DNA of 63,558 nt, the filler included, from Rozella allomycis CSF55 (Eukaryota): NCBI GenBank assembly GCA_000442015.1. It is 17 parts of 17 records of this genome, joined end to end, with 100 filler letters (N's around TTAATTAATTAA, not from the genome) between each part and the next. Parts side by side here need not be neighbours in the genome. Positions count along the whole stretch, not along the records: positions 29,720 to 38,004 come from KE560680.1; 16 more parts are not named here. One strand, given 5' to 3'. How positions within the stretch are numbered: position 1 is the stretch's first letter; each line of letters begins with the position of its first letter. This document shows positions 3,914 through 56,363 of this stretch, piece after piece. Below the pieces are notes generated by a model. The model was not told the origin of the DNA, did no database searches, and worked only from the letters and a program-made list of their open reading frames with translations. The translations under genes were made by a program, and so were the position numbers.

Positions 3914-6900
3914 TTATTTAGCCAATTGAAAGAATAGATTAAATGCTAAATCTTTTTCACTGTTAAATACCTTTGAAGTACTTGTATCAAATGGATTAGG
4001 AGTCATTGATACTGGTTTAGAGATGACAGATGATTTGAAAGGACTAGATTTATTCATTTTAGATTTTGATTTATTGACGTTACAAGGTTTGGTAATATTT
4101 TGATTTAGTGAGTTTGTAATAGTGGTGGGCGTTGAAGAGCTAGTTGAGGTGAATTGTAAAGGTTTAAATTTGAATTGATCTAATTTAATGACGGTTAGTT
4201 TTTCAGTGGAATTGTTGTAAGTGGTATTTGAAAGTGGGGTAGGGTAAGATTTAACAGGAGCTGTAGGAACGAGAGTCTTTGGAGTAGTGAGTGTTGAAGA
4301 ATTAGTCATTGTATTGGATTCTTTAGATGGAGAGACCCATTCATTTATTTTTAATTGTTTCTTTTTTGATGTTAATTGATCACATTTTCTCTTTTCTTTT
4401 GCATAGCAATCCTTGAACCTATTTTCTTTCACTTTACTTTCTTTAACTTTACTTTCTTTCTCTTTACTTTCTTTCTCTTTATTTTCTATCACTTTACTTT
4501 CTATCACTTTACTTTCTTTCACTTTACTTTCTTTAACTTTATTATCTTTAATTCTATTCTCATTTGATACTTGTTTACAATTATCTTGTATTGGTTTAGC
4601 AGGAAGGCTTTCAGTTGATCTATTTATAGATTGATCTAAGCCACTGAAATCATTTAGTTTAGCATGAATAGAATAGTTTTTGATATTCTTCAAATCTATG
4701 AGTTTTTCGTTTAGTTGATCTAAGGGTAGTTTTTCATAAAAGAATAATTGATTTGAATCGTTGATGATGATTAGATGAATGTAGAATCTACCCTTGTTAT
4801 TCTTGTAAGAGACAGTTGAGGGGTTATTTAATTTTATTAAAGCGTTGTTGTTATTGATTGAGATTGAAATATTTGGAAGTTTTTTGACATTTTCTAGAAT
4901 CTAAAAATAGAAAGTTAAAAATAGAATTACTGTTTTTCCAAAAGGCGGTAATCTTTTACAAATAGATTCAATTTTATGTTCTTCGGTTGAAGCTAATTGA
5001 TTTAAAGTAATGATGCCATTTTTGTTTAATAGGAGACAATTTGCTTTACCAATTTTTTCTACTTGCATTAAAACTTTTGGGTTGTCGTCCCAAGTAGAAG
5101 ATTTAATGTTGGAACCAATTTTGATTACTTTTAAAAGAGCGTTTGGATATTTCTTCATTAAACAGAAATCAATCATTGTTTTTATTATTCTACTTGAATG
5201 ATAAATTATAAAGTTCATTTCCATTGAAAAATTTCTACCAGAAGATTTATCATTGTTAGTTAGTTGATTAGATTCATTCACTTGACAATCTACTTGATCT
5301 GATAAAATCATTTGAATTAAAACAAAAACTTTTTCAAAAATATTTTTAATTCTTCCATTAATCTTCATTTTAAATTTCTTGTTTAATTGATTTAAATAGC
5401 CCTTTTCCCCTTGTTGAAATCTAATACTTTCAAATTCTTTAGATTTAGACAAAATTAATAAAATATTTCTATCATCAACTAAATCATCAATCTTTATTAT
5501 TTCTTTTATTGTTTCATATTTAATATAATTCATTCCCATTGATTTACCCAATTCTGTACTGGAAATTTCAAATTCATTTTTAGTTTCATTAAATTTAATA
5601 CATTCAACTTTACTCAAATTATTCAAATCTTGTTTAATCAATTCATTCAACTGTTTATCAATTTCATTTCCATTCAACTTGTAATGATTTGGATTCAATT
5701 TTATTCTTTGATAAAGAAAACTCTTTTTAATCCATTCAAATGATTCACTTTCATTCTTTATAGTCCCAAGCATTATTTCTGCATTTAAATGTTCAATCAA
5801 ATTCTCATGCAAACAACTTTCTATAATTTGATTTCCAGAACAAATATTCTCATATTTACTCACTTTATCTTCCATTGTCATTATAATTGCAATCCCCTTA
5901 GAATCAAACTGAGGTCTACCAGCCCTTCCAATCATTTGAAGAATATCCAACTCACTATACTCTTCATATCCAATAGACGAATACTGCTGCGTTGATTTAA
6001 TCACAACCAGATGCGCTGGCAAATTAACTCCAACAGCCAACGTACTCGTACTACACAACACTTTAATCTCCCCTTTTCTAAACTTTTCTTCAATTATTTC
6101 TCTATCCTTTTGATTCAACCCCGCGTGGTGATACCCAATCCCTCTGCTAACCATCAATCCCAACTTTTTATCACTCAATGCAACCCCCTTCTTGTCTTTC
6201 ACTCCTTTTACATTCCCACTCAAATATTCTGCTAAATGAATGCAACTCTTTCTAGTAGAACAAAACTATTCAAACAAAGTCAAATTATTTACAACTAAAC
6301 TAGAAAGTCCATTGGAATATTTCTCTATTATTTTTGGTATCTGATAATCCAATTGCTGCTCAAACAGAAAATCTGATTTGTTTCCCCTGGGATATCCTAA
6401 AACTACCTTCTCCAATGGAACCGGTCTATATTCATCTCCAAACTTGAAATATTCCCCCTTAATCCACAATCCAATATCTTCCACATTCGGAACTGTTGCT
6501 GAAACAGCTACAATCCTCATGTCTCTCTTCATTATCATCATCCTTTATCATCTCACATCATATTCTTACCGGCAAACTACAACCTCCAACGTTGAGCCCC
6601 TCTTTTCATTCAGCAAATGCACTTCATCAATCAACACTAAATCAATCAAACTCATATACTGCATTTTCATATTCCTATTCAAACAAAATCATAAATCTCA
6701 CCATTTCCTAGTCACTGAATCCCATTTCTCTGGCGTCGTTATTCTATCACTTTCACATTTAACCCTTACATTATATCAGCTTCAAATATCTTTTTAAAAC
6801 TGATTTCTACTGTATCCCCCGTCAATTCACAACATGTCAAACCAATCACCTCCAATTTCTTCCAATCTCTACTTCTCTCAGTACACAACGCCTATTATTC

Positions 6901-7501
6901 AAACTTTATGGATTTACCTTGGTGGGCGCTAAATACACACACTTGGATTTCCGGCCTCTCTTTTCACTCTCCATTTTGTTTTTTATCAAAGCCAACTCTA
7001 GTATCCCCGTTTTACCAGCTCCAGTAGGCGCTGATACTACAACGCTCTTTCCGCTATTCATAATCTATACCCATTCACTGTATTTCTTACTGTCTGAAAG
7101 CATTTTGATTGAATCCGGTTCAAGTATTCATACTTTGAAAACACCTGCCTGTATTTAGCAGCTAATATAATTGAAACAAATAAATTACGCAAACATGTTG
7201 TTTTAACCAGTTCATTATCATACCGCTGTCCATACTCGTACACAGGGGTGGTTTCCCTCTCCGAGTATGCAGGGGGTTTATCAATCTTGAATACATCCGA
7301 AGCACCTGTGAGATGATCATCAATGGCAAATGCGTCATGAAAGTACCCTATACTTTGCTCATATGCACTAGCGTATTTTGGCGCGTTCACTGGTGCGTTC
7401 ATCGGCACAAATACACCACCATCCATGTTTTCAAATTCTTCGAGCTCCTGCAATATGTCATCTGGCTCTTGATTCCATTGATGCAAATTGTAGTGGTTCA
7501 T
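3914..7501 (-). CDS. MER3: Meiotic DExH helicase Mer3/HFM1 with Sec63 domain and low-complexity tail, about 8 introns of 26-30 nt
   Basis: SAPTGAGKT, TTPEKWDS, IDEVH, SATVPN, HHAGL, TSTLAVGVNLPAHLV and QMIGRAGRPQFD motifs; IESCLHENLIEHLNAEI is typical of Mer3. Confidence 0.9.
4425..4545 (-). repeat. Coding 15-nt tandem repeat (KESKV/IESKV) in the Mer3 tail
   Basis: Repeated actttactttct units; translation KVKESKVKESKVIESKVIENKEKESKEKESKVKESKV. Confidence 0.85.
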
Positions 7502-7703
7502 TATGACAGGGGTCTGCCATGCAAGTGTGACAAAAAATTATGAAATTTCACACTAAAATAGAAATAGAATTAAAGAACTTTGTATATTTTAAATAATCAG
7601 TTTTTAAGTTCAAATTTAATAAAAGATCTTGAAACTATTTTTGGCATCAAAAGCCATTTATATAATTTAATGCCTTACCCCTGATTCTCACCACCAAAAA
7701 AGA

Positions 7704-10295: not shown

Positions 10296-11711
10296 TTATT
10301 GTTGTGCACATGCGTCTTGTTCAATTTTCTTTCTTCTTTCTTTGCGCATTAAAGGATTTTTAATTTTAGAATTGAATTCAAATTTTTCCTTTTTGATTGA
10401 AATTTCAGAATTAGATTGAGAATTTTCTTTTTCATTTTTGAATTGATTTTCTTGTAATTCTTTAATTTTCAATTTTAATACATCAATTTCTTTATTTAAA
10501 TTTTCATTTTTAAGAAACAATGATTTTTTGTTTTCATTTGCTTCATTTAGAAGAGCATTCAAGTATTTAATTTGAGTTTCTGAATTTTTGTAAAGTTTTA
10601 TATCATTTCTTAGGTTTTCATTTTTCGCGAGTAAATCTGCCAAAGTTTGATCTTTTTCTTTCAATAGATCTTCCTTTTCACTTAAGAGTTTTTCTACTTG
10701 TTGAACACTAGCATCTTTTTCTTTTAATAGCATCTCAACTTGTTGTACACTAGCATCTTTTTCTTTCATAATCATGTCTCTTTCTTTCAGAATTGTATCC
10801 CTCTCTTTAACAATTGTATCCCTCTCTTTAACAATTGTATCCCTCTCTTTGAGAATTGTATCCCTCTCTTTCAGAATTAAATCTCTCTCTACAAAGGCTT
10901 GATTCCTTTCTTTTAACAATTGAGTCATCTCTGTTACGGATTGATCTCTCTCTTTTCGAATTTGTTTAACCATTTCTTCTTCTAAAGATTTAACTTTAAT
11001 TTCTAAAGCATTCAACATTTTCTCTTTTTCTAATTTTAAATAATTTTCATTTTCAATTTTATTTTTTTCAAATAGATCTATTTTTTCTTTTTCTAATCTT
11101 GAAATTTCACAATCTTTTTCTTTTAATGAAATTTCGTAATCTATTTTTAGATTTTGAATTTCATTTATTTTTTCATTTAAAATTTCTTCTTTTTCTTTAA
11201 TCAATTCATCTTTCAATCTTTCAATTTCAATAGATTTTTCATTGTTAATTTTTACTTTTTGTTCTTTAAATTCATTTTGAATTTTTTCAATTTCTTCCTT
11301 CAACTGTTGTACAATTAATTCCTTCTCTTCCATCAACTTTGTTAGTTCTAAATCTTTCTCTTCTTTTAAAAGTTCTACTTGTCCAACAATCTTCTTTAAT
11401 TCTTCATCCTTTTCATTTATCATATTAATCTTTTCTTTTACAAGTGAATCTTTCTCTTTAACTAACCNATTAATCTTTTCTTTTACAAGTGAATCTTTCT
11501 CTTTAACTAACCTTTCAATCTCAATAGTATTCTCATTCATTATTCTTTCAATCTCATGAGCTTTTTCACTGTTTAATCTTTCAATCTCAATAGCCTTTTC
11601 ATTCTTTAATCTTTCTATTAATAAATCTTTCTCTTCAATAACCCTTGTCAATTCTGATTCTGAACCTTCCTTTAATCTTTGAATCTCTAAATCTTTTTCA
11701 TTGCACAATCT
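10296..11711 (-). CDS. Long coiled-coil protein, C-terminal part, ending in CaaX-like CAQQ (5' truncated)
   Basis: E/K/L-rich heptads, 21-nt repeats encoding ERDT(I)(V/L)K at about 10791-10874, terminal ...EQDACAQQ*. Confidence 0.75.
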   Translation of the reverse strand, partial: RLCNEKDLEIQRLKEGSESELTRVIEEKDLLIERLKNEKAIEIERLNSEKAHEIERIMNENTIEIERLVKEKDSLVKEKINXLVKEKDSLVKEKINMINEKDEELKKIVGQVELLKEEKDLELTKLMEEKELIVQQLKEEIEKIQNEFKEQKVKINNEKSIEIERLKDELIKEKEEILNEKINEIQNLKIDYEISLKEKDCEISRLEKEKIDLFEKNKIENENYLKLEKEKMLNALEIKVKSLEEEMVKQIRKERDQSVTEMTQLLKERNQAFVERDLILKERDTILKERDTIVKERDTIVKERDTILKERDMIMKEKDASVQQVEMLLKEKDASVQQVEKLLSEKEDLLKEKDQTLADLLAKNENLRNDIKLYKNSETQIKYLNALLNEANENKKSLFLKNENLNKEIDVLKLKIKELQENQFKNEKENSQSNSEISIKKEKFEFNSKIKNPLMRKERRKKIEQDACAQQ

Positions 11712-18168: not shown

Positions 18169-18823
18169 TTAACCGTTGATTGTACAATCCATTGGCATTG
18201 GCCGTTTAGTAAAGTCGGGCATATAGGTTTTTTCCTTTACTTCTCCCATCAAAGTATCTTTCATTCCGGCTATACCTATTTTGAATATCACTTACGCTCT
18301 AGTGGCTTTTCTTCAGCCTGTGGAAAATCAATAACAGCGCCAGTATCTAATGAGATCCTCACGCGTTTAACCTGCCCGCTTTCTGGATCTTGGATGCATT
18401 TGTTAATAGCTTCACATGCCTTCCCAGTTAAGGGGTCAACAAGAGCAATTTGGCGCGCATAATATGGCCAATTCAAATTTATATGTGAAATATGAACAGC
18501 TTTTTCGTCTTTTGGTTTTGGCAAAAGCCTTCTTTGCAAATTGAAGCCAGAAATAGTGACTTGATTGTATGTCCTCAAAATATCTGTAACAATTCCATGG
18601 CGGCCCTTGTTTTTTCCGTGAAGAATTTCAACCTATTTGTTAAATTGTCAAGTTTTACCTATATGATACAATAAAACATATTTACCACGTCGCCCTTTGC
18701 AAATAGCCATTCATTGTCTGGAATTTCTGGGCCAGCGCGAACTCTATGTCTTCTAACAAACCTATTGAATTGATATGTGAATGGCCTGATTTTGTATAAC
18801 TTTTTAGTTATGGTGGCCCCCAT
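18169..18823 (-). CDS. MRPL24: Mitochondrial ribosomal protein uL24m (MRPL24/Mrpl40)
   Basis: Spliced KOW motif W.FAKGDV|VEILHGKNKGRHGIV, then HISHI..IALVDP..G and RVRISLDTGAVI. Introns 18633-18685 (compound) and 18270-18295. Start codon uncertain. Confidence 0.85.
18633..18685 (-). other. Compound intron of two abutting mini-introns (27+26 nt)
   Basis: GTAAATATGTTTTATTGTATCATATAG|GTAAAACTTGACAATTTAACAAATAG; both must go to restore the KOW motif. Confidence 0.85.
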
Positions 18824-29000: not shown

Positions 29001-29776
29001 CAAAAAAGGGTAATCTATTAAAGCTTGGGCTAGAAAACTAATCTAGAGCCAAAAAAGATTTTCTTTAAATCGCCAACCGGACGGGAAGTTTATAATTGTT
29101 GACAAATTTCTTCACACAAAACCACTGTTTTGTATCTTTATCATTTTTTGACATAAGTTGAAAAATTGTCAGGGCTTGCACCCATGTTTGAGGTTATTAT
29201 AACTGAAATTTTTTTTCTCCAAGGGTGTAATGTAAACCTTATCGAATCATCTGTATCATCTGCATCTGATAGAGTCTATCTCCAAAGCCTATGTTGACCA
29301 TATAAGAAGAGCTTCCTGGGAGCTTACCCAGGTTATTTATCATAAATAACNATTTTATACCTTCGTTTTAAATTATAGTATAAATAACCTAACAACGCGC
29401 AAATGTCTGAAAACACTCACGAATCAATGTTACGTGATATAAAAAGTAAGCAGGATGATAAAGATGTGACTACATCGATTTTAACTCAGACCAGAGACAA
29501 AGATGAGAAGAAAAAGTCATCGACAGAAGTATTATGTTAATACAAGGGTATTCGCTTACTGTTATAAAAGGCACCCATGTAATTTTTTTTTCTTCACTTC
29601 CTTTAAAATCTTTAGACTTNNNNNNNNNNNNNNNNNNNNNNNNNNNNNNNNNNNNNNNNNNNNTTAATTAATTAANNNNNNNNNNNNNNNNNNNNNNNNN
29701 NNNNNNNNNNNNNNNNNNNAAAAAAGTAACAATAATAACAAATAACTTTATTAATAATTATTGTGATGAAATAAAT

Positions 29777-32700
29777 TTATTCGTATTGGGATAAATCCAG
29801 TGTGAGGATGGCAGAACCATTAACTTCTTGATTACGATATACACCAACAAGAGAGTCGGCCTTTTCATATAATTGCCTCTTTAAAGAAATAACGATAAAC
29901 TGAGGTGATTTGTGATCTAATTTAATCTCATTAGAAAATCCTTACCATTTATGTCATTGTTCTCTCCATCTACTTCATTTTCTCCATTCCCTTCTCCAAC
30001 TTGTTCATCACTCACTCCCCTATTTCTTTGTTGTTTATTGTTTGATAGATTCCTTAGATATCTAGCCACTTTGGCAACATTAGAGTTGTCTAAAGCAGCG
30101 TCAACTTCATCTAGAACAAAAAACGGAGAAGGTTTAAAGTTTTGAATAGAAAACAAGAGAGCCAAAGCCGCGACTGTTTTCTCACCACCCGAGAGATCAT
30201 CAATGTCTCTGAATCTCTTTGTGGGAGGAGTTACATTGAATTTGACACCAGAGAGATAAGGTTCCTATTTGATGTGATGAGAGGAAAGATTACGTCTAAA
30301 TCTTGAAGTGACAGAGAAGCTGAACCACCTAGAGGAAAGTTTTGTGATTTTGTTAATTCCTTGTAAATGTGATCAATTGAATCTTGTAGCACTGTAAAGC
30401 AACTCATAAAAGCCTTAAACCTTGAGTTAAAAATAATTGAAGAGATTACCTAATTAAGACTTTAAATACTATTGATTACCTAGTTTAACCCCTATAATCA
30501 TTGATTACCTAGATTATTACTTTAAATACTATTGATTACCTAGTTTAACTCCTATAACCATTTGATTACCTAGTTTAACCCTCATAACCATTGATTACCT
30601 AGTTTAATCCCTATAACCATTTGATTACCTGGATTGTTGAATAATTGAAAATTCTTGTTTGATAGATTTAGCATTCTTTCTAGCCAATTCAAAAGAATCA
30701 TTTGATTTCTTGAATTGATTTTGAAATTCATTAAATTTGTTTAAAGCTTTTAAATTTGGTGATATTTTTTCTAAATCATTTTGTAGAGATTTTAATTTTT
30801 CTTGAAATTCAATTTCTTTAGTTTCAGTTGAATTAATTTTAGAATTGTTGTCAAGTTTAGAGAAATCTAAGATTGCATTTCCATTAATTAAAGATCCAGA
30901 TGTTATGGGAATTTTTATTTGTTGAGAAGCGCATTTAATCAAGACAGATTTCTTTTCTTCTACTAGTCTTTCTAATAGAGCTTCTCTTGATGTTTTGTTC
31001 TTTATACTTGTTTCATAGTTTGTTAATAATCTGTGAACTAGTTTTTTCTTCTTGTTGAATTCTTCTTGAATGTTTTCATATTCTTCTTGGAATTCATTCA
31101 ATTTATTCAAATTTTCATCCAAATTGATTTGTGAAATTTCCTTTTCTTTTTCAATTTTATTTAAATTTTTATTCTTCAATTCTAAATCATTTTCCAAATC
31201 ATTAATTGATTTCTTCAACTCTTCAAATCTTTTATAAAAATCATTCATCAAATTATTTTCAAACTTTAAATCTGACGAGACCTTTTTATAGGTAGGGTTA
31301 ATAATTTACCTATTATATAGGTAGGGATACTATTGTTACCTATAGTATAGATTGACTTTAACTGCTTACCTATCGTTAATCATACCTTCACTATGTTACC
31401 TATTGTTAACTTTTACCCCTTTTGCTTACCTTTGATTTTAATTGATTTAGTTCAAATAGTTTAATCTCTTTTTGCTTCACTTCTAGATCAATATAATCTC
31501 TAATATTTTCAATCTTCAATCTCTCACAAAAACTTTTAAATATTTCATCTTGTTTTAAAAACAAAGATTTCTGAATCTTTTTAAATTCATTTACAATTCT
31601 ATTCAATTCTTTATTTTTAAATTCTTCTTCATTCATCAATTCATTTATATTTTTATTCAACAAATTTAATTCATTTTCCAACAATTTAATCTTTCCTTCC
31701 AAATTGTTTATTTCTTGTTCAACATACACCAACTTTGATTGTAGATTAGCTATTTGATTATACATGGGTTCTAAATAACTAACCTTTTTCTTTTCTCTTG
31801 ATATTTCATTCAAATTGGCTATCAATTCATTTCTCTCATTTTTCATTTCTTGTATATTTTGTTCATCCCATGTAGATCCATCAAAGCCACTAGATCCACC
31901 AGAGATCAACCCAGATTTATGGATCACTACTCCATCCAACGTAATCGATTTCACTCCAAGTCTTTTATTATAATTCACATCCTTTGCTATCTCCACATCA
32001 TCACAAATAACTGAATTGCCACACGCATACTGCACTGCTACATGGAATTTACTCTCACATCTGATAACATCAATCGCCAATCTACAGCCATCAAGATTTC
32101 TCAAACTTTCATTAATTGGTTTCACATAAAGTGAGTCCAATGGCAGAAATGTAGCTTGGCCTATTCTCTGTTCCTTTAAATAGTTCAAACATTCAACTGC
32201 TGTTTTTTCTGAATCCACCAATATTGAATTCAAATGTTTTCCAAGAACAATCCCACAAGCTACTTGATATGTTTTATTTATTGGTTTAACTGTTTCCTTT
32301 AATCTTCCATAGACGCCTTTTACAAAGTTAGTGATTAATTACCTATTAAATGACAAGTACGCTCTTTACCTATTAAATGAAGTAGTACGCGCTTTACCTA
32401 TTACATGATAAATACTCTACTTACCTATCACATTATAAATAAGTACACTATTTACCTATTGTTACATTTCAAACCTTTTAATTACCTGAATAAATTCTCT
32501 TCATGTTGCTGATCGCTTCATTCATTTTACTCTCCTTCAAACTAGTTTTAATATTAATTTTAGCTTCACTCAAATTCTCCAAGACTAAATTCAATCTCTC
32601 TTGATACTGAATCTCTTGCTCATTCAACGCAACTTTAATCTTTTTATTTTTCTCAATCTCATTCTCCAATTTATTTTTTTCTTCCAATAGATCTATTCTA

Positions 32701-34123
32701 TTTTTAGAATATTTTTCTCTTCTTATTCTCAGATTTGAAATTTCAGAATTAATCTTCTCTCTTCTTTCTTTCTTTTCATCTATTCCAATAAACTTTATTT
32801 CTTGTTTAATCAAATCTATTTTCTTATTCAACTTTTCCAATTCTTGTCTCTCGTTAAAGTTCATTTCATTTTCTTGTTTATTCAATTCATTAAATTCTCT
32901 TCTCTCTTGTTCATTCATATTCACTTTATCTATCTTTATTTCTTCAATCTCTAATTCTATCCTCTTAATCTCTTCTTCCCTCTCTTTAATCTTTTTCATC
33001 TTTTCTTCCTCTTCAATCTCCATCGCCTCCCTCTTCATTTCCAAATCTCTCTTCTTTTCATTCAAATATCTAATCTGCTCCTTAATCTTATTCTTTTCTG
33101 GTCTCTTTTCTTCAATCCTCTTTTCCTCTTCCTTTATACTCTTCTCCAATATCAACTTTTCTTTAAATATTCTGTTTTGATCCTTCTTCTTTTCCTTCAT
33201 TCCAACCTCCTCCCTCTCGTAACTCTCTTTATTCTTCTCCACTTGCTCTCCATGATACTCAATCTCCTCCTTCAACGACTCTACATTCTTCTCTATGTGA
33301 TACAACCGCCACAACAAATATTTTATCGTAATCTCATCCCGCTCCCTCTCCAACTCTGCATACCTCTCCGCCTCTTCCTTCTGCTCCTGGTACTGCCGCA
33401 TCTCAACATTCATCCCCTTCCTCTTACTAAACGCAACTGTCGACTGCTCAGTCGCTCGCTCCATCTCCTCCTTCAATCTATCATACTCCTCCTTAAACTC
33501 AATCGACCTATAATCATCCCTCAACCCTCTTCTTACCCTGATATCTGCTCTATAAAGTTACTCAACTCTTTCGGATTCCTCTGCGCTATAGCCTCCACAT
33601 CCCCCTGGAACACCAAAAAGTTTCGCAACTTGACCAATATATTCTCCTTTTCCAACTCACCATTATACACCCCAGCTGAAACAACCTACGCTCTCTCAAT
33701 CACCTACTTACCTTGCCATCAATCCTATACTCACAATGCCCATTCAACTGAACCCTACAACTTTCAACAAACACCCTTACGATCGGCTAAACATCACACT
33801 CTCTCCCTCAAGCTCATACTCCATCTCAACAACAGCCTTGTGCGCATCCTTGCTCTTGTCGCCACACCGGTACACAAGCTCCTTCAACTGCTTCGACCGC
33901 AAATGCATCGCTTGCACCCCCAACACAAATGAAAGCGCATCCATTATATTCGATTTGCCTGTTTTCATCGCCAACGTATTTTACCTAGATATGATGATGA
34001 AATACATCCGCTACCTGATCCGTTTGGTCCTATAATACACGTAAAGTCGCTAAAGGGCCCGATCCGGTGTCGGCCGTTATAGGATTTGAAATTCTCTACA
34101 TACAAACTGTTCAAACGGCCCAT
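29777..34123 (-). CDS. SMC1: Cohesin subunit SMC1, 9 introns (4 compound)
   Basis: [29 protein letters not shown], hinge [41 protein letters not shown]. Introns 33959-34014, 33755-33780, 33686-33711, 33508-33536, 32317-32485, 31282-31429, 30421-30628, 30265-30293, 29917-29945. Confidence 0.96.
30421..30628 (-). other. SMC1 compound intron: 7 abutting mini-introns (30,29,30,31,29,30,29 nt)
   Basis: Each unit starts GTAATC and ends AG; six internal TAG|GTAATC junctions. Removal gives QQSR-FKAFM. Confidence 0.9.
31282..31429 (-). other. SMC1 compound intron: 5 abutting mini-introns (30,30,30,30,28 nt)
   Basis: Internal ATAG|GTAA junctions at exact 30-nt spacing. Removal gives [13 protein letters not shown]. 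Confidence 0.9.
32317..32485 (-). other. SMC1 compound intron: 6 abutting mini-introns (30,31,27,28,27,26 nt)
   Basis: Five internal ATAG|GTAA junctions. Removal gives hinge RIYSG-VYGRL. Confidence 0.9.
33959..34014 (-). other. SMC1 compound intron: 2 abutting mini-introns (30+26 nt) inside Walker A
   Basis: GTAGCGGATGTATTTCATCATCATATCTAG|GTAAAATACGTTGGCGATGAAAACAG; removal gives GPNGSGKSN. Confidence 0.88.
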
Positions 34124-34359
34124 TTTTAGGTTCACGAAAATTCAGAAATTAAATTTTATATACCTCGACAAAAAATATGGCCATGTATTTATTAATTAAC
34201 TGTGAGAGTTGTTAAGCGAAAGCGAGAAAAAACCTAAATATCAAATATCGAAACTTATTGTAACGTTAAACCTCGTGTTCTATATATACACATTCTGATC
34301 CCAAAATAGAATAAAACGTTCGGGAATCAGGAGGATCAAACAAAACACTCCTGTTTCAC

Positions 34360-35681
34360 ATGCTGCAAGTTCCCCTCCACCAGTTCATCGACCCGAATTT
34401 CCACCCCGATCCCTCCGAATGCATAATCGCAACCATCCNGCGATACTTTTAAGGAAAGCCAAAGAATCTACGTCGAATTTCCACCCCGATCCCTCCGAAT
34501 GCATAATCGCAACCATCCTGCCATGCAGCCCGCCCATGGAAATCAAGCGGGTGTACTGGTACTCTACGTGGTTCATCAGCTGCAACGACATTACTAAATA
34601 CGTCGCATTCTGCTACATCCAGCAAACAGGCAATTCAATTCACAACATGCACAAGTTCGACGAAGGCGTGTTCAGCGATTTGAGACAGTACAAGATTGGC
34701 GTGCATGCTGTCATGGAGGAAAACAGGTCGGAATTCTTGTCGTTTTTGCTAAAGACTGGGTGTGTGAAGACTCAGAAGAAGCAAAAGGTTTACATTTGGG
34801 ATAAGATTAATCTGGATTTGCTGGTGCAAGACGCTACTATGCGGGAGTTGAGGAGAGGCAGTGGGTCGTCGGCTAGTAATAGGAAACGGAAGTCTGTTGG
34901 GTCCATCATGCTGAATACAAACATGTCGCCCTATGGATATACAGAACAGTTTATTCTTCCTTTTGAACCGGCATTTAGTGAAACGACAGACGGGACAATG
35001 CCATTGACACCCATTACACCTCTAGGGACAATATACGAAGCCCCACAAATGGACCAACAGAACAGCGAGCCGCCAAGTATTGACATATCTCAACTATTTG
35101 CAATGGAAGGTCAATTCACTCCGTACGCATCACAAACTGCTCCACTTTCTTCTTTACCTCCATCTCTATTAACATCCACATCAGAGTTTTTTGATCAAGG
35201 TTTGCTCCTTCCGCCTCCATATTCTCCAAGCACGCTATACACCTTTGATGAATTTCCCGCAAGAAGACCGCAAAATCGTAGACATTCAACCACCTCTCTT
35301 CCAGACTGGTCAAAAGGATCAGGCGATCGACCATATAAATGCCTAGTGCCTGGCTGCTTTCGCGAATTCAAACGTATGGAGCACTTAAAACGCCACGGTA
35401 GAATACATACTGGGGAGAGGCCGTTTTCATGCAACTTTCCAGGCTGCAACAAGTACTTTTCGAGATCGGATAACTTGGCTCTGCATCAGAAAACTCATGA
35501 GAGAAAGGGTTTGGAGTTGATTGAGGAAACCAATTTGCACTTTAACAACAATGTAAATCTGCCAATGAGCAGCAAGGTCGATGTAACCTTTTTTGACTCT
35601 GCTACCGATCTTCCTTTACTTGATTCTCTAGAGATCAAAGATAAAGGCAGTTCTCCTATAATTAACGCGCCAATTTGGTAA
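34360..35681 (+). CDS. STE12: Ste12-like transcription factor (STE domain plus two C2H2 zinc fingers)
   Basis: [29 protein letters not shown] and [27 protein letters not shown]. The 5' end is blurred by the assembly overlap at n34439. Confidence 0.88.
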
Positions 35682-37417: not shown

Positions 37418-38104
37418 CAGATTTTTCGAATGTCAAGTTAGAATAAGGCAGGATATATCTTCTTAGTAATTCATGAATTACTTAGAAGATATATCCATTT
37501 GTAAACTTCTCCAGTGCCTTGAACTCTCACATAGCCATTCTCACAATCCTCCATGTGTTCAACTAGTACAACAAAAGGTTTTCTTTTGGTTTCTGTGTTG
37601 CTTCTTTTTAGAACAATAGATTCAAAGACGTTAAGAATCCTCTTTTCTCTTGCTTTGTCTATTCTTCCTCCACTGTGAGAGAAGCAACTGTAACTACTGT
37701 GCCTTGCTTATTATTAACATAGATACAGATGTGATCNGATCTTCAATTGATTCGTAATTTCTTTTCTTAGCAATAATCTTTCTGGCAGCCTCTGCGGCCT
37801 TGGCACCTTTCAAAAGATTCTTGAAATGAGTGATTGAGGTGTTGTTAACATTGATCAAGGGAGAAGCAGCGGGGTNAATCTTCAATTGATTCATATTTTC
37901 TTTTCTTAGCAATAATCTCTCTGGCAGCCTTTGCAGCGTTGGCACCTTTCAAAAGATTCTTCAGATGAGTGATTGAGGTGTTGTTAACATTGATCAAGGG
38001 AGAANNNNNNNNNNNNNNNNNNNNNNNNNNNNNNNNNNNNNNNNNNNNTTAATTAATTAANNNNNNNNNNNNNNNNNNNNNNNNNNNNNNNNNNNNNNNN
38101 NNNN

Positions 38105-45210: not shown

Positions 45211-45534
45211 AGAAAACAAGTAAATTTATTTATATGCGTTTTTGTTCTTGAGCGTTGATTAAAGGTGCGTTGAGTTTGTGGGCTTAGCCACATGAAAGTT
45301 ATCCGATACCAGTCTTGCGATTAATGCNAGTTATCCGATACCAGTCTTGCGATTAATGCGAGGACGACCTATGGGACGATTCCGTTCGATTGCAATTTGA
45401 CGACGTCTTTCAGTTCTAGCAGCAGCTTGAGCGANNNNNNNNNNNNNNNNNNNNNNNNNNNNNNNNNNNNNNNNNNNNTTAATTAATTAANNNNNNNNNN
45501 NNNNNNNNNNNNNNNNNNNNNNNNNNNNNNNNNN

Positions 45535-47049
45535 TGTGAAAATGAAGGAATTCACTGGGGCAATCTTTTTCCATAGCTTCCAGCAAACTGTGAAACCATT
45601 CAAATGCCTAATCAATGTTTAAAAATACAATTAATTACATTTTTGTCCCTGCATATCCACACAAAATGCAATGTTTGAAGCTTGGTATTGTCTTTTATAT
45701 TTCTGGTTTTCCTATACCAAATGTGTTTTAACACAGAAGCGAATGGTGTCACTCCAATACCTGCGCCTACGATCAAAGCTGAATCATATTGAAAAACGTC
45801 TTCTGTGGGTGTTCCATAGGGTCCGTCAACGTATATTTTCGGTAAGTACCATCCATTGTATGTCTTGACTTGGTCTTTCTTCTTGAAGCAGCCCAGTCTA
45901 TTAGCAAGTGCACTGGTCCAATCTCCGCAAACCCGTATATGAACTGAATGATGATCGTCTTCGGGGCATGATGAAAGTGTAAACGGATGCCATTGATACT
46001 TTGATATTTCAGGGATACAGATAAACACATATTGTCCAGGTTTATATGAAAATGAGGGCTTTTGAAATTGCAATTCAATTACTTTGCTTGGATGTTCAAT
46101 TATTTTAGAAATGTATGTGAGCCTACGTGCCCTGACTTCTCTTAATCCCCTTTCGATCAAAAACAAAATAAATCCTGCAAGTGCATATTTCCAGGTAAAG
46201 TAACCTTTACAAACTCGCTCTTCTGTTCTTACAAAACATCCAATTCCGTGCAGGAACACCAATATTGACCAAACAATTGCCAAATGATGTGTATAGTAGA
46301 AAATCTCAAACTTTTTTCTTCTGATTTGGAACATGGCACCAGTAAACATTAAAAGCTGGATGATCNACCAATTCCGTGCAGGAACACCAATATCGACCAA
46401 ACAATTGCCAAATGGTGTGTATAGTAAAAAATCTCAAACTTTTTTCTTCTGATTTGGAACATGGCACCAGTAAACATTAAAAGCTGGATGATCAATAGTA
46501 ATAATCCAGTAACGCCTGCTGGATGTTGAAAGAGTATGTAATAAGGAGAAAACCAGCCAAGATTCTGCAATGTACGTAGATTCAACATATGACCACATGT
46601 ATGAACTACAGAAAAGAAGCTGATCATGTAACCGACTTGGCGATGGAAGAACAAGTTGCTGTCGACTGGCACGATTTTGTTGATGAACGAAGACCTAACG
46701 TGAGAAAGCAAATTACGGCATATGGGGAAGAATATCATTATCGTACCGACATGTAAATTGTTTNGCCGACTTGGCGATGGAAGAATAAATTGCTGTCGAC
46801 TGGCACTATTTTGTTGATGAACGAAGACCTAACGTGAGAAAGCAAAATGCGGCATATGGGGAAGAATATCATTATCGTACCGACATGTAAATTGTTTGCA
46901 CTACCACGACTTATCCATACAGTCCACCCAAGTGGGTTGTTCAGTCTATTCAGTTCCGTGTCGTTCTTCTGGTTGAAAAAGCCTTGCATAAATATCAATA
47001 CATTGAACGCAATCCAAAGAATCCAAAATATGACTGTAGAGAGCTGCAT
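45535..47049 (-). CDS. NADPH oxidase catalytic subunit (gp91phox/NoxA-B type), 3' truncated
   Basis: Heme histidines FFHRQVG..VVHT and YYTHHL..LHG; WHPFTLSS, DGPYG, VGAGIGVTPF. Broken by overlap artefacts at n46366 and n46765. Confidence 0.9.
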
Positions 47050-47163: not shown

Positions 47164-48122
47164 ATGCGCGTTGCCTTCCTTAGTCTTCTAACAATTATTG
47201 CCGCACAGAATACTACTCAAGTCGACTTTTGCACAGCAAGTGGTCAAGCATTAATGGATGGTACACAAAATCGCGGAGGATCGTGCTCAAATACGATTCA
47301 AGGAGTAATTTGATATTTTAAATAGGATTATAGTCATTACCGGATGTAACGAAAATGGTGTCTACTATCATTTTATCGCCATCAAACGGTGATCGAATTG
47401 AAGAGGGGACNTGCACAGAATACTACTCAAGTCGACTTTTGTGCAGCTAGTGGCCAAGTTTTAATGGACGGTACACAAAATCGCGGAGGATCATGCTCAA
47501 ATACGATTCAAGGAGTAATCTGATAATTTAAATAGGATTATAGTCATTACCGGATATAACGAAAATGGTTTCTACTATCATTTTATCGCCATCAAACGGT
47601 GATCGAATTGAAGAGGGGACGCCCTTTGTCATTAGTGTCAAGACTGTCAATTTGCAATTGGGATTCTTTGATAATCCACAGACAGAATATTATTTAAGTC
47701 CACAGACCTTGAATAGTAACGGAATCATTGAAGGTCACCAACATGTTGTTGTCCAAGCATTGACAGACGGTACGGTACCACCCAGCGCACAGGACTTCAA
47801 ATTCTTTAAAGGCTTAAACGGTGAATCTGCTGACGGTGTTCTTAGCGTTAATGTAACGGAAGGTATTGCTGGAGTTGGATCTCACAGAATATGCACAATC
47901 ACTGGGTCAAGAGGACATCAGCCAGTTTTAATGCCAGTCGCACAAAGAGGATCACAAGATGATTGCATTAGAATTGAAATCGTAAAGAAGAAGAATGGAA
48001 AGGGAGGAAAAGGATTCAATAATGTTGCTGAAGACGTTACCGAAGGTGAACTTGAAAGAGTGCGACATGGTCGTAGAAGAGAAGGAAGAAGAAGGTTTAG
48101 AGACAGAAGACACAGGGATTAA
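47164..48122 (+). CDS. Conserved fungal-type secreted Cys-containing protein of unknown function
   Basis: Signal peptide MRVAFLSLLTIIAA; DGTQNRGGSCS, GH.HVVVQ, FFKGLN, HQPVLMPVAQRGSQDDCIR. 5' part duplicated around n47411. Confidence 0.75.
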
Positions 48123-48981: not shown

Positions 48982-50798
48982 ATTATCTTCGTAAATATTG
49001 GTGGTTTCAGATTTGATGCCACGTTCTTTAAGCAGGTTTCTTGTCTATATTGCTTCTTGAGTTGCCAGTGATAGTGATACATATTCTGCTTCACAGCTTG
49101 AGAGTGCAACTGAGGCTTGTAGCTTACTGCACCAGTTTATACATGCGTCGCCTAGAAAAAAGCAATAACCACTTGTTGATCGTCTTGAGTCTAAGTCTCC
49201 GGCCCAATCAGCATCGGCATATCCACTAAGAGTCAAAGATGAACCACCCAACTTTAGTCCGTAATGTTTAGTGGCATTCAAATATTGTAGAACATGTTTC
49301 AGTGCAGTAAGATGTACAGTAGATGGCCCTTCTTGAAATCGACTAAGAATTCCAACAGCGTTCGCCAGGTCAGGTCTGGTACACATAGCTAAATGATGTA
49401 ACGTTCCAATAATGCTTCTGTAGGGAATATCATTAATTTGAGCTTTTATCGTTGCATTTTCTCTCTTTAAAATTACATTTGGATCCAACGGTGTTTTTAC
49501 AAATCTAGAATTTTCCATTTTTGTTTCCTTTAACAAGTGTTCAGCTAATCTGGATTGAGATAAATAAAGTCTTCTTTCTATTCTATTTCTTTGTACTTTT
49601 AATCCTAAGCAATGTTGAATGGGTCCCAGATCTGTGCTTTGGAATCGAGATGATATTTTTTTCTTTATATCTGAGGCAATATCTTTTGGAGCGGCGATAA
49701 TGATGTCATCTACATAAATACTTAAATAACAATTTAGTCCTGTATATAGACACGGATCTGCAATGGTTGGAGTAAGGCCAATAGAGATGAGGAATGTATG
49801 CAACTCTTCGTACCATACCCGGGGTGACTGACGTAAACCATAAAGAGCTTTGTTCAATTTGCAAACCATACCTGATTTATTATCATGTGCGACACCAGAG
49901 GGAATTTCCATATATACTTCTTCTTTGAGGGAAGGAATTAGAAATGCAGTTACTACGTCCATTTGTTCTATTTCGTAATCACGTGAAGCGGCAATAGAGA
50001 GCATAGTTCGCAGGGATTTATATTTTGCTACCGGCGCGTATGTCTCAGAGAAATCTTGACCCGGAACCTGTGAGTATCCTTTGGCAACAAGTCTCGCTTT
50101 GTATCTAGCAACAGAACCATCGGAATGTCTTTTGATTCGAAATACCCATCTGCATTTGACAATCTTGCGATTTGGAGGAGCTTCTTGGATTGACCATGTT
50201 TGATTTTCGTGGATGCTGGAAAGTTCGTTTTGTACTGCCTGATACCAAAGAGATGCGTCATGCCTACCTTCAATGTCTTTATAATCATTGGGGACATCGT
50301 CGTCAGCTTGTGCAAGTAATGCCTCATGATAGTTAATTGGTTTTCTGAACCGTTTCGTTTCGGGGGGCAAAATATTATCAACATGAATTTCAGAAGAATT
50401 TTGATTGACATTAGAAGTTCGTGGAGGGTCTTGAATAACGTTTGTATTTATAGGCGTGGAATTGATAAAGTTTGGATTGTTTAAAGTTTGATTGTTATTG
50501 ATAAGGTTTGGATTATCAAGATTCTCAACATTATAAATAGAGGCCTGATCAGAGTCGCTCAAAGATTGGAAAGCATCACTATGAATTTCATCTTGGTGTT
50601 CTTCCATTGGAAATATATTGTCTTGTGACATGAATACTGGTAATACTTGATTTTGAATATTAGAATTAGATATGGAACATTCTTTATAGAAAAACTCGGG
50701 AGGGTCACAGAAAGTAACATCACGACTTAAAGTTAATTTGTAGGTTTCCGGATCAACGGTTCTATATGCTTTACTTTGAATATCATATCCGGTAAAGA
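48982..50798 (-). mobile_element. Ty1/copia pol fragment (RT plus RNase H) with a nonsense codon
   Basis: CRWVF..K, YKARLVAKG, QMDVVTAFL, ALYGLRQSP, YVDD, YADADWAG. TAG at 49045-49047 replaces the usual Trp, and the frame continues TRNLLKE...IYEDN. Confidence 0.93.
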
Positions 50799-50898: not shown

Positions 50899-52917
50899 AT
50901 ACGAGAATTAAGTCGTTCTTCTAGCCTTGAACGACAGTCGGCATTCGATAAATTCTTTTGAAATAAAGTTAGAAATGTTAAAGAGGTACTAAAATAACAA
51001 GAGCTGTAAATTTTATTGGTCTTCACTATTTTTAAAGAAATCCGCGAGCCAGGTCTGGGTGCTGAACTTTTCATGTGGCGAATCTTCTAAAATATTGATG
51101 TTGTCGATGAAGAATGAATTATCGGGGCGAAATTTTGAATAGAATGGCATGCAGAATAACTTGATTCTATCTGCATCGCTGACAAATATATTTAATATAT
51201 AAATAAAACTTGTGACATCCTTTGGAATTTCAAATTCATATTCAGCAAAGTTTTCACCGACATATGAGTAAATGTATGCTTTTGTCATTAAATTGTACAT
51301 TGAATCATTGAGTTTAGGAAACATGGGATGGTTTATAATATATTCAAACACTTCTGAAGACTCTGTTGTAACTATTGGGACCCATGCGTAAAAGCACTCA
51401 AATAGATTAAGTCTTGGTATCAAACGATCAATCATGTCAAATTTTTTATTAGTTACCGCAGCCTTAAAAAGATCAAGATATCTAAATTGTTGTCTCCTGA
51501 TAGAAAGGATCCTCAAATATTCCATGGCCCCGGCGATGTGTAGCTTAGCAAAGCCACAGTGGCATCTATAAAACGAGACAGGTATTTCCCTGTCCAGATA
51601 ACAGCTACATTTACTTTCGGCATATTCCAAGTCATCTGAATTAAAATTATAGTCGTAATCCCTGCGCAATAAATTGTTTGCATATTCCTTAATAACTTCA
51701 TCGGTCAGTTCAAATTCTTCATCTTCACATTCACAAGGCCACCCTCTTTCATGATTTGCATCAAAACAATTCATCCAGGCAAGTGGATCGTCAAAATTAA
51801 GGTCTTCAACGGAAAGATGATTCCCATCGGTGCTGTAAGAGATATCAGAATCTGTTACATACTTGTAACGATCATCTAATATACTAAGATCATCTTCAGT
51901 AATTTCATCAATTACGAGCATAGCAAATTTATCAAATGATTTATCTAGTAAGGTAAATGTGACCTCCATAAAGTATTTTTTCAATCCAGTGACTCGAGAT
52001 AAGAGTATATCAACTAAAGCATCCTGAAAATATGTATAAACATAATTTGAATAGAAATAATCGTTAATTTCTTGTTGACTCATTGTCTTGCTTTTTTCAG
52101 TAAGCAACCATCGATAAGTGTGGGGCTTCATGTATCTCTCATAAACAGATGATGATAATTGATCACAGAAATATTTGAAGATATCACAAGAATATTCTTT
52201 AATGGGGCAGTTTTGATTTTTACAACGCATTGAATGATTAACCATATTCTGTTGAACATATTCATGATCAACTACACGTGGTAAAAAATAATTGAAAATG
52301 TCTTCACAAGATAAAAGATCGCTATCCAATAGTAGCATATAATTATCATCGCTAATTGCATAAGATCGAAAAATTAAACGCCCGTCAAATTCTTTTACAA
52401 TACGGATACCTGCTTTTAGCACCAATTTCTTATCTAGGGAAATTAGTTTCTCTTTCAGCAAACAATAATGCAAAATTTCTCTTTGCTTCAGATTTAGTTT
52501 GGTTTTGTCATTTAGTATCAGTTCCATTATTGTATTCACGCATTTTGGAATATTTGTGTCTCTGACTAACCTATATATATAATCATATGATTCATTCAAA
52601 TTATTCAACTCCCTTGAAATGGTCATAACANTATTTTGGAATAGTTGTGTCTCTGACTAACCTATATATAAAATCATATGATTCATTCAAATTATTCAAC
52701 TCCCTTGAAATAGTCATAACAAAGAAAAGGTGGGACACTTGACCCAAGCGGATAGTTTCTTGACGGGTTGTAAAGCGTATAATATTTTCCCAGATTTCGT
52801 ATGGAAAATCCATATTTTTAGAATCAATATTCAAATTCTTTAAAGGTAAGCTAGGCAACGATAATAAATACGTCATGAATGTCGTTCAAGGCTAGAAGAA
52901 CGACTTTATTCTGGTAT
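50899..52917. mobile_element. Non-autonomous TIR element carrying an F-box gene
   Basis: 50899-50936 and 52880-52917 are inverted repeats (36/38 identical) with TA at both outer ends. Confidence 0.7.
51013..52813 (-). CDS. F-box protein with Cys-rich and helical/ankyrin-like C-terminal region
   Basis: MDFPYEIWENIIRFTTRQETIRLGQVSHLF is an F-box. It joins the 537-aa ORF across the overlap artefact at n52631. Intronless. Confidence 0.75.
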
Positions 52918-53448: not shown

Positions 53449-56363
53449 TTAAATGCCACATTTATAGTGTTTAGGTAAATTAAGTTGTGTCATTCCATTT
53501 TTTATTTTGTCTTCAATAACCTTATCAACATATTTTATTCCAAAGTCTAAATAAAGATGTTTAATCGCACAGTAAAAATGAGAAATCTTGAAACAATCTT
53601 CCCAATCATTGACTAGCACTAAAAGAGTATTCAATTTTGAAAACAAAGGTTGGAAAGTATAGTCAGATAGCATTGATTTAACAGAATTATTAAACGAATT
53701 ATGAATTTTTTGTTTCTCATTTGCATCGGTAATTTTCTGTATCTTGTCGCTTACATTTCGGACTATTTCGTGAAGAATAGTAATAAACAATTTCATAGTG
53801 TCATGTTTGTCAGTAAAGTATCGAGGGAACAAATTATCTATGTATTTATTATTTGAAACTTTTAAGGTTGTTTCTAAAAAATTTTTCGCGTCATTGTGAA
53901 TATATTGTCCTTTCATAACATTATCATATAAGCTATGAAAAGTATTAGAGAGATTTTTCGATCTCGATGATGCTTGTTTATACTCTTCAACAAAAAAATA
54001 ATAGTTATTGAACAAGTAGGACTTCAATAAAGCACTAAATACTTTAGCCTCATCATCCTTTGCCGGCGACCAGTTATATGTCCCTTTCTTTGGCCTTTGT
54101 TTAGAATTAAATAGATATTCTAATCTCAAGTATGATACCCATTTTGAAATGTACTTCATGTATGGAATAAACATATGAAGAACAATGTCATCTGGCACGT
54201 TTGGTGTTAGAAAAATTGGTTTCAAATTTGGATTCACACTAGCCACACTTCTTGTTGACGAGGGTAAAAAGGCAAAGCAGAGAATTATGCCTAATTTGTC
54301 ATCAACTGCAACTTTATCAAAAATATTGTTAATATTATCATAGAAGTTTTGATCAAATTGAAAGCCTGGCGAAGATCTACTAGAGAGATCTACCTCTCTT
54401 ATTAAAACAGAATAATGAATGAATTCTAAAACCTCAAACACGCTCAAACGGTTGCTACTTAAATGCCATTGGAAGAAACTTGCCCAATCCTGTTGAAATA
54501 CGTTTTGATAAAGAATGCTATTGTTAATACTAGTGGCTTTTGCAAGAGGCATCGGTGTTCCACCTAACCGGACCACGTTATTATTAAACGAAATAACAAA
54601 ATCGTTTGGCAACATGAGCCATTTCTGCTCATCCCAGTTTTGATAATTCTTTGCAACCAGCGTTACACCTTGGACCCCTATTGTCAGTTGTTTTCCTGTT
54701 GAAAAATGAGATATCATGTTATGGGATCTTATAATCCATAAACTTGCAGTAACAGCAGCAGCCCTCCAGATAACTCCTGTACCATTACTATCGCCAGTGA
54801 GAAATGTACCACCAGAAGAAGTTATATAAACTGGCTTGCCATAAAACGTCGAGTAATCTTCTAATAATGACACACTATTATCTTCAAGATTAAGTATTCT
54901 GGGCAACCAATGCTCGAAAAACTCATTTTCATTTTTAAATCCCATCTTGCACGGAACAAACAAACCCTTCAGGTCAAACAATTTTGATTTAGGATTATAA
55001 AACCATTTTTTATATGATGGCACAATAGGTGGGAACTGGTCCACAAAATTACAAACTGTTTCTTCCGCAGATAATCCTTTCTTTACCGTCTTAAATTCCA
55101 TGCTTGTTAAAGATTCGATATTCTCTATATTTTCCCACTTACATCTCACGTCCTGTTCTGAAAAAAGCCCCTTGTTCGCACATGACACTGCCATTACGTC
55201 GTCTATATACCGTTTTTGTGTTGACCTATTTAAACTACTAAAATAAACCATTTTCCAAACCCTTTCAGGTACTGTTATTCTCCTTCGAATTGATTGAAGA
55301 AACAAGTCAGCACTATTTGACGTTTGTCGAGCTTGCACGGGCAAGTAATGATTGAGACAATTAATGTCGACCGACGAAAATTCTTTTGATCCTAGATAAT
55401 TCTTCCTTAATTTATATACTTTGAAGAAAATCAGTCAAAAGGTTTAAAGGACCTTGTACACCTTGTCTCGTAGTTGAAGTCAAGCATTTGTAGGGATCTT
55501 TAAATATGTCACTGTTTGGATGAGTCAGCCTTTCTGCTGTATTTATATGAATTGAAACGGGTTTGCCATCAAAAAGAAGGGGATCCATAGACACACCAGT
55601 TAGCGTCAAGATTTTGATTTGTCCACCTACAATTCGAGTACTTCTAAACTCTGCAAATGCTTCTTCAAATAAGTTCCAAAGATTTCCATCAAATTTCGTA
55701 TCCTTATTCATATTGAGCCTTTTCATTTCTTCGCATTGTTCAGTTAAATATAATCCTGAAATAAAAACATTTGAAGTAGCATGAAGTGCATTGGCATTAC
55801 GACTACCTTCTTTGAATCCCCGAAAAGATTGTGAAGGAATCATATGACCCATTGTGTATTTTACTGTTCCAGCATCAGTGACAGAATCAACATGGTTTCC
55901 AATTGGTTGAGGACTGTTTCCGTTAAAATAATCAAAAAAATACATCGAGGGAGACAAATCAGTAGATGGTGATGCCAGGTCCACTACCGGGAAAAACCGA
56001 GTCGGCTGCTTGTTTATTCCGACCAACTGACGCGAAGGTTCAGGAAAAATGTTAATAATTGATCGAAGTTCTTTGATATGGTAAAGACTTACATATACTT
56101 CCTCATTTTCTGACGTATAGAAACATAAAAATCTAATATCAACCATGTGTTTATACTGCATCTGTACTTTGAGATCAAAAATATCCTTGCATTTAAAATT
56201 CTTAAATTTCGAGACGAATTTAGATTGAGAAAAGGGAGGATCTGTAGGTTTTTCTGCAATTTTTATATTAACAAACCTTTTGTTCGAGTCTTGTGGATCT
56301 TCCAGTGGCGAACCGCTAGTGGGGAAGTTTGGATACTCACAAAAGAGACAATATTCGGATGAC
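53449..56363 (-). CDS. Multidomain protein: EndoG/NucA-like non-specific endonuclease, ricin-B-like region and helical tail (5' truncated)
   Basis: MGHMIPS, N.....WNLFEE, ILTLTGV and ITVPERVWKMV. A 28-nt intron at 55392-55419 fuses the two ORFs in frame. EQKW/FQW repeats follow. The frame is open to the contig end. Confidence 0.65.

Follow-up and report, generated by a model that had tools for sequence, protein, structure and literature searches.

Six abutting intron-like units make up a 169-nt intervening sequence in the SMC1 gene of Rozella allomycis

Introduction

How is an intervening sequence removed when every part of it, from end to end, resembles a complete intron? This question is posed by a 169-nt stretch of the SMC1 (cohesin) gene of the fungus-like parasite Rozella allomycis CSF55, which lies at 32317..32485 on the minus strand of the DNA that we analysed (hereafter the window) and separates a coiled-coil exon from the exon that opens the SMC hinge. 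We refer to this stretch as array C, and it joins three questions: how small and how uniform introns can be, whether intervening DNA can leave a transcript piecewise through zero-length exons, and how introns are born. The window spans 63.5 kb and is composed of 18 pieces of contigs. Between them lies a constant linker, in which a 12-nt motif with stops in all frames has 44 N on either side (e.g. at 29620-29719), and pieces that are adjacent in it need not be genomic neighbours. The reading that we favour, to which we assign a probability of about 0.65, is that array C is a tandem array of six self-sufficient spliceosomal mini-introns that has grown by duplication and would be removed in several steps.

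Results

Six units tile the array exactly

On the minus strand array C divides exactly, with no exon in between, into six head-to-tail GT..AG units. In transcript order these are C1 (32485-32456, 30 nt), C2 (32455-32425, 31 nt), C3 (32424-32398, 27 nt), C4 (32397-32370, 28 nt), C5 (32369-32343, 27 nt) and C6 (32342-32317, 26 nt). The donor of C1 is the exon/array junction, and C6, the last unit, carries the acceptor that joins the hinge exon. Every unit begins with GTAA and ends with AG, and the five internal joints all read AG/GTAA (the slash marks the joint), with an acceptor abutting a donor. This division was obtained both by reading the minus strand and by an independent chain search, and it is identical in coordinates, number of units and unit lengths to that proposed in a first-pass annotation of this DNA. 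Tandem Repeats Finder (TRF) gives a period of 27-28 at array C. The array lies in phase 1, between a Ser codon (the end of ..MKRIYS) and a split Gly codon with which the SMC hinge begins (G-VYGRL..). The exon before it ends in ..CAG, which when joined to any of the units forms CAG/GTAA, the same kind of donor as is found at the start of the array.

Such a pattern is not expected by chance. When the inner 165 bases of array C were shuffled 200,000 times, not one of the shuffled sequences could be tiled with GT..AG units of 23-34 nt, and among the 308 GT..AG stretches of 169 nt in the window the only one that could be tiled was array C itself. Pairs of AGGTAA spaced 24-33 nt apart occur 15 times in the window, compared with a mean of 0.11 and a maximum of 3 in 200 block shuffles, and all 15 fall within the SMC1 gene. 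Together, these results establish the anatomy of array C and its non-randomness.

A pattern of this kind could also arise in assembly, if reads of a short repeat were mis-joined, and the window is indeed a draft of 18 N-linked pieces in which two-copy repeats with a single midpoint N resemble unmerged contig ends. However, there is no N within 29720-34438, and the reading frame across the region closes exactly. Moreover, the six aligned units have a mean column identity of 66%, and because they differ at a third of aligned positions they are not collapsed or expanded copies of one read. An assembly artefact is therefore hardly credible.

Array C must leave the SMC1 mRNA entirely

The gene that carries array C runs from 29780..34125 on the minus strand, and its model has nine intron positions, of which five are single mini-introns (26, 26, 29, 29 and 29 nt) and four are arrays. 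Upstream of array C, the coiled-coil exon (32486..33507, minus) ends with 1 nt of the split codon, its last full codon being the Ser of ..MKRIYS; downstream, the hinge exon (31430..32316, minus) opens with the remaining 2 nt of the split Gly codon and continues with VYGRL... The hinge exon matches Smc hinge proteins (PF06470), including human SMC1A and a protein named psm1, which bears out the SMC1 hinge label given in the first-pass annotation. Its top match is 'Smc hinge domain-containing protein, partial [Rozella allomycis CSF55]', and this entry is identical to the window exon over residues 18-178 and 179-227, so that the window holds the SMC1 locus of the same organism. From its predicted SMC hinge domain and Walker A P-loop, we identify the gene as SMC1 of cohesin. 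It uses the standard genetic code, with exons of 340 and 295 codons open under table 1.

The exons flanking array C could be placed on a homologous SMC1 fragment from Syncephalis. In this alignment the upstream exon ends at residue 210, the first full downstream codon corresponds to residue 212, and the split codon supplies Gly 211. As the alignment is colinear across the junction, array C is predicted to encode no residue. Reading through array C meets a stop at the third codon, whereas joining the exons restores the hinge sequence Ser-Gly-Val-Tyr-Gly-Arg. By these comparisons, all 169 nt of array C must leave the mRNA.

The public annotation divides SMC1 into partial models. One of these (P0001, 31430-32485, minus) starts inside array C, such that its first ~17 residues are translated from units C2-C5. 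The same model drops 69 codons of real coiled-coil as a false intron; these codons align to residues 391-447 of Syncephalis SMC1.

Arrays are concentrated in SMC1

Array C is one of five arrays in the window, which together hold 22 units, all of which begin with GT and end in AG (6/6 in array C, 22/22 over the five arrays). All lie on the minus strand, and four of them are in SMC1. Array A (31282..31429) has five units of 30, 30, 30, 30 and 28 nt and is in phase 0, and array B (30421..30628) has seven units of 30, 29, 30, 31, 29, 30 and 29 nt and is in phase 2. Array D (33959..34014) has two units (30 + 26 nt) and interrupts the Walker A motif (GPNGSG/KSN). The fifth, array E (18633..18685), also has two units (27 + 26 nt) and lies in a KOW/L24-like gene, in which the downstream exon begins at position 5 of the KOW profile and there is a weak match to ribosomal L24, both below the Pfam cut-offs. 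The intervening sequences of arrays D and E are the two shortest 'long' ones (56 and 53 nt), and each holds an internal AG/GTAA that divides it into 30+26 and 27+26 nt. Arrays occupy 4 of 9 intron positions in SMC1 as against 1 of 47 elsewhere in the window (p = 0.0016).

The concentration of four arrays in SMC1 might be taken as the mark of a regulatory device, in which serial splicing steps, or the optional retention of a unit, set the amount or the form of the protein. Retention of C5 (27 nt) by itself would lengthen the protein by nine in-frame residues and bring in no stop. The other five units of array C, however, bring a stop or a frameshift if kept, and none of the arrays has a total length divisible by three (169, 148, 208, 56 and 53 nt for arrays C, A, B, D and E). 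The insertion point of array C falls within the conserved start of the hinge, where the alignment to the homologue is free of gaps, the unit interiors are not conserved, and a two-unit array is also present in an unrelated gene (array E). We therefore regard a regulatory role as very unlikely, and array C is probably without function of its own.

The units carry splice signals of intron grade

To score the units by positions other than those that define them, we used a signal matrix covering +3..+8 and -8..-3 (12 positions), trained on 51 single introns outside SMC1. Decoys were 1,801 GT..AG segments of 26-31 nt. The mean score was -3.0 for decoys and 1.7 for single introns (leave-one-out). 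The six units of array C scored 3.1-5.4 bits, each within the top 2.4% of decoys: the lowest of these scores is that of C1 (3.1 bits, with 2.4% of decoys scoring as high), and the highest is that of C6 (5.4 bits, with 0/1,801 decoys as high). Across the five arrays, all 22 units differed from decoys at p = 3e-14. When 24 GT..AG candidates of 24-34 nt from array C and its surroundings were ranked, the in-register units took places 1, 2, 4, 5, 6 and 8; the two out-of-register candidates that rank among them pair the donor of a unit with an acceptor lying another 6 nt downstream, and at 33 and 34 nt they fall outside the size class of introns in this window. Each unit of array C thus has donor and acceptor signals of intron grade, which follow the extended consensus of this genome and not just GT and AG, and the units are candidate U2-type GT-AG introns.

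At the 3′ end, the sole feature found among 78 mini-introns of the window is an A-rich stretch at -5..-3 (AAT) before the AG. We also considered array C as a structured RNA, and rejected this reading: array C had no Rfam match at E <= 1, and its fold energy is ordinary (z-score -0.53).

The units fall in the narrow size class of single introns

Introns of the window were catalogued with a purpose-written gene finder that combines codon log-odds and splice-signal matrices and allows introns as chains of 22-34-nt units. Five 'introns' (27, 25, 23, 34 and 25 nt) were removed from this census, as they bridged two different genes, Metallophos and MBOAT. The window models contain 51 single introns, of 24 nt (1), 26 nt (15), 27 nt (14), 28 nt (4), 29 nt (10), 30 nt (3) and 31 nt (4). 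Within a search that allowed 22-34 nt, 50/51 single introns and 22/22 array units were 26-31 nt long, and none of the 22 array units (0/22) lay outside 25-32 nt. The lengths of the array C units did not differ from those of single introns (Mann-Whitney p = 0.46). The first-pass annotation had held that, despite indels, no unit of array C leaves the range of ordinary introns, and in the window models this holds for the units of all five arrays. Introns of about 30 nt in Rozella S23 have been noted in print (PMC6349667).

Introns above 31 nt were not required by any gene model in the window. Longer introns that keep the frame closed were sought in a separate scan, which left 34 alternative candidates at ~10 loci, and two of these loci were dismissed. 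At one, the candidate spans the spacer between a complete bestrophin gene and a TBCC-domain gene, and so joins two different genes; at the other, it extends to the start of a gene whose product has a signal-peptide-like N-terminus.

These data bear on the simplest alternative, that array C is one ordinary 169-nt intron, spliced in one step from the outermost donor to the last branch point and acceptor, with its internal joints being unused relics of duplication. A single step would yield the same final mRNA, so the colinearity with the homologue fits both readings. The public annotation takes out array A as one intron (P0001), though this is itself a prediction, and the candidates just described leave room for longer introns here. 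On the other hand, sites that are out of use would be expected to decay, but at the 12 positions outside GT and AG the extended consensus persists in all six units. Even C1 and C6, the interiors of which are no longer similar to those of the other units, retain the consensus and a size of 26-31 nt, and the indels that changed unit lengths never took a unit beyond 26-31 nt. One-step splicing would also need to ignore five equally good acceptors nearer to the first donor, and nowhere in the window is an intron above 31 nt without internal joints required. Although a single 169-nt intron is the strongest of the alternatives, we consider it doubtful.

Units of array C are duplicates of differing age

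To assess whether units descend from one another, interior alignment scores were compared with those of 1,540 pairs of unrelated single introns, among which the maximum was 9. C4 and C5 scored 12, the highest value in array C and above the background maximum, and a single indel and a few substitutions separate them. They are true duplicates, as the first-pass annotation had supposed. Weaker scores were obtained for C3-C5 (8) and C2-C3 (7), which are probable relatives, and C1 and C6 had no detectable similarity to other units of the array. In the alignment, the differences in unit length within array C arise through indels.

Other arrays differ in how alike their units are. Array B consists of near-identical copies (scores 15-19) in a two-unit higher-order repeat (TRF period 59, 59 nt), and by this measure its copies appear much younger than those of array C. 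The two-unit period points to unequal exchange at the DNA level. The best pair in array A (A4-A5, score 11) is comparable to that in array C, and arrays D and E show no similarity between units. Calling array C intermediate in age, as had been proposed, is hence fair in relative terms, with array B fresher and array A comparable.

Across all 3,003 pairs of the 78 introns in the window, only pairs within arrays exceeded background. C1 (32456-32485) and A1 (31400-31429), 1 kb apart, are identical at 23 of 30 positions without a gap, and their score of 9 equals the background maximum; this likeness may be due to chance or may be a trace of intron copying between sites, and we treat it as a lead and not as a finding. 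An introner or mobile intron family was rejected within the scope of the window, as there is no many-copy likeness across unrelated sites and the C1-A1 score equals the background maximum.

We also weighed an origin at the RNA level, whereby excised mini-introns were reverse-spliced into AG/G beside an existing intron of the same transcript and fixed via reverse transcription and recombination. Under such a scheme units need not copy their neighbours, and as it concerns origin only it is compatible with stepwise removal. It would suit the dissimilarity of C1 and C6 from the rest of array C and the resemblance of C1 to A1, as well as the gathering of arrays in one gene (4/9 vs 1/47), as if one complementary DNA had brought them; an open reading frame (ORF) for a Ty1/copia-type reverse transcriptase is present in the window. 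Suspected reverse-splicing events are mostly at existing intron positions, according to a review (PMC3443670). However, the C1-A1 score is marginal, with ~0.1 such cross-array pairs expected by chance, and in arrays B, C and A it is neighbours that are most similar, which together with the two-unit repeat of array B argues for tandem duplication at the DNA level. The same review states that reverse splicing into a new site has not been shown in vivo (PMC3443670). We judge an RNA-level origin unlikely.

The flanks of the arrays are those that tandem duplication would exploit. All five arrays (5/5) are flanked as G/../G, in comparison with 7 of 51 single introns (Fisher p = 0.0002). Junction microhomology, counted where the exon tail equals the intron tail and the head of the next exon equals the intron head, amounts to 3, 6, 4, 4 and 3 nt at the arrays (3 nt at array C) against a mean of 1.04 nt at single introns (p = 0.0002). 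Microhomology of the AG/G(T) kind at array flanks is what slippage across AG/G(T) would require.

A model for growth and stepwise removal

From these features we infer an origin by slippage, removal in steps and a ruler on intron length. The starting point would have been a single intron of ~26-31 nt at a site where one exon ended in ..AG and the next began with G. Slippage, or unequal exchange, across the AG/G(T) microhomology would have duplicated this intron exactly, and the array could later have grown and shrunk by whole units while the copies diverged. Each AG/GTAA joint would be the acceptor of the preceding unit and the donor of the following one, forming a zero-length exon, or 'ratchet point'. 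Because the signals of the units are complete and their length is the only one seen for introns here, the spliceosome would be expected to treat every one of them as an intron; the nearest acceptor would always be the unit's own, and units would be excised one or a few at a time. Excision of any unit, in any order, would re-create an AG/GTAA joint, and all routes would therefore converge on the same mRNA. Removal of the first unit, for instance, would set the exon end ..CAG before the next GTAA and so renew the donor. No RNA run was listed as covering the SMC1 stretch, and from one RNA data set under the same species label, in the form of contigs, just three spurious pieces of 18-33 nt could be placed, with no joints among them, which bears neither on expression nor on splicing.

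Several observations, besides the longer-intron candidates described above, weigh against this reading. No discrete branch-point motif was found in the 78 mini-introns, with TAAY found 4-12 nt from the 3′ end in 19/78 compared with 15.6 +/- 3.4 in shuffled sequence. When pooled, array units are slightly longer than single introns (median 29.5 vs 27 nt, p = 0.007), which the model does not predict; this may be a founder effect, since 30 nt is the length of 9 of the 22 units, and copies are not independent. A hard upper limit on intron length is not proven, as the census comes from an ad hoc finder in which units are capped at 34 nt. Selection would, moreover, keep strong internal sites even without a length ruler, because the loss of one would trap a unit in the mRNA. 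Finally, the flank and microhomology signal is confounded with the gene, as four of the five arrays are in SMC1, where single introns are flanked as G/../G in 2 of 5 cases, and within SMC1 alone the contrast between arrays and single introns is not significant.

Relation to known systems

Zero-length-exon recursive splicing is known from Drosophila, at ratchet points of the Ubx type (10.1101/006163), and from two cases in fission yeast (10.1101/226894). Array C resembles these in having AG/GT inside an intervening sequence, with a donor that would be renewed and a piecewise exit that would leave no trace in the mRNA. Elsewhere, however, recursive splicing acts at one point or a few to divide introns that are long, measuring 336 nt in yeast and from kilobases up to hundreds of kilobases in animals, while array C has five joints in 169 nt, at the spacing of minimal introns and between paralogous pieces, and its stepwise removal is predicted from sequence. 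With a total of 169 nt and segments of minimal size, array C does not serve to subdivide a long intron.

Dual-specific AGGT splice sites occur in tandem repeats such as that of human polyubiquitin UBC, and repeat expansion has been proposed as a source of introns (PMC10809524). As in UBC, the repeat period of array C equals the excised length, and its units are bounded by AGGT able to act as donor or acceptor. Whereas the units of UBC are coding and splicing varies the protein copy number, those of array C are non-coding, would all be removed and are complete introns of standard size. A model has also been described in which introns are gained when a genomic segment containing AGGT is duplicated in tandem (PMC3443670; PMC4974935). 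Array C shares with this model adjacent paralogous copies, AG/G(T) at both ends of the segment and an unchanged coding sequence. In that model an exonic segment gives rise to a first intron, but here an intron itself would have been duplicated repeatedly, giving up to seven introns per position.

Introns as short as those of this window are known from Paramecium and Nyctotherus, at ~25 nt (PMC5014332), and from myxozoans, at <30 bp (PMC13644364), and the likeness lies in a very narrow length class near the physical minimum. Searched by term, two papers on ultra-short introns (PMC13644364, PMC13685798) gave no mention of intron arrays; neither 'tandem' nor 'recursive' occurs in PMC13644364, and 'tandem' is used in PMC13685798 only for gene duplication. 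Full-text searches of the literature turned up no account of mini-introns arrayed in tandem, whether in Rozella or in other organisms, although the intron statistics of the Rozella genome paper could mention them. Array C is apparently an undescribed variant of recursive splicing, dual-specific splice sites and tandem-duplication intron gain.

Filamentous fungi have stwintrons, spliceosomal twin introns that are removed by consecutive standard splicing reactions; in these, a splice signal of the outer intron is split by an inner intron, and the inner one has to be spliced out first. Stwintrons and array C have in common a complex intervening sequence in a fungus and consecutive standard splicing, which for array C is predicted. 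The stwintron reading was rejected for array C, as its units abut, none of the donors or acceptors is disrupted at the DNA level, and nothing dictates the order of removal.

A scan of metagenome contigs with the protein of the hinge exon gave 136 pattern matches, none of which was confirmed as a relative. Stretches with three TAGGTAA joints 26-33 nt apart numbered at least 118 in metagenome contigs and included satellites, such as one contig (L008) with 267 AGGTAA at multiples of 4 nt. Among the matches listed, seven had open flanks, six of these being in-frame coding repeats and one a 22-nt repeat, and there was no convincing intron array among the matches listed.

Other features of the window

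The window also holds seven two-copy tandem repeats (37739-38004, 45297-45359, 46240-46494, 46632-46899, 47203-47620, 52542-52721 and 63393-63468), with periods of 32-210 nt and copies matching at 93-100%, each with a single N at its midpoint. They resemble overlapping contig ends that were left unmerged more than repeats of biological origin. Long minus-strand ORFs at 4420-4549 and 10675-11641 contain several in-frame tandem repeats of 15-66 nt, and these repeats appear to be coding and unrelated to the intron arrays.

A helicase gene at 3917-7531 (minus) encodes Helicase_C, SNRNP200-type winged helix and Sec63 domains (Brr2 / Ski2-like family), and its model has seven single mini-introns of 26-30 nt. 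The Ty1/copia-type reverse transcriptase is encoded by an ORF at 49048-50793 (minus; RVT_2, E = 1.5e-57) that also has a retroviral SH3-like domain. Two large ORFs (51016-52629 and 53461-56338) are without a Pfam match. Genes are tightly spaced at 56781-60716 (minus), where gaps of just 72 and 137 nt lie between the complete bestrophin gene, the TBCC-domain gene and a third ORF.

Discussion

Array C poses a practical problem as well as a biological one. Standard gene predictors mishandle mini-intron arrays, and the Rozella protein sets used in fungal and microsporidian phylogenomics may carry systematic errors. The arrays also provide intron duplicates as a dated series, with array B at the fresh end and C1 and C6 at the saturated end, in which selection on intron positions could be measured.

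If the units are removed one by one, array C would represent the most compact recursive splicing, outside animals and in an ordinary protein-coding gene. A stronger proposal, which we put forward tentatively and hold with clearly less confidence than the favoured reading, is that the spliceosome of R. allomycis has a hard ruler of ~26-31 nt. Longer intervening DNA would then exist as chains of mini-introns with obligate serial, or recursive, splicing, and arrays would be live records of intron birth. Were there such a ruler, intron DNA in this organism would be quantised; and were it combined with a record of duplication, Rozella would be a natural setting for studying intron gain together with minimal intron size and recursive splicing.

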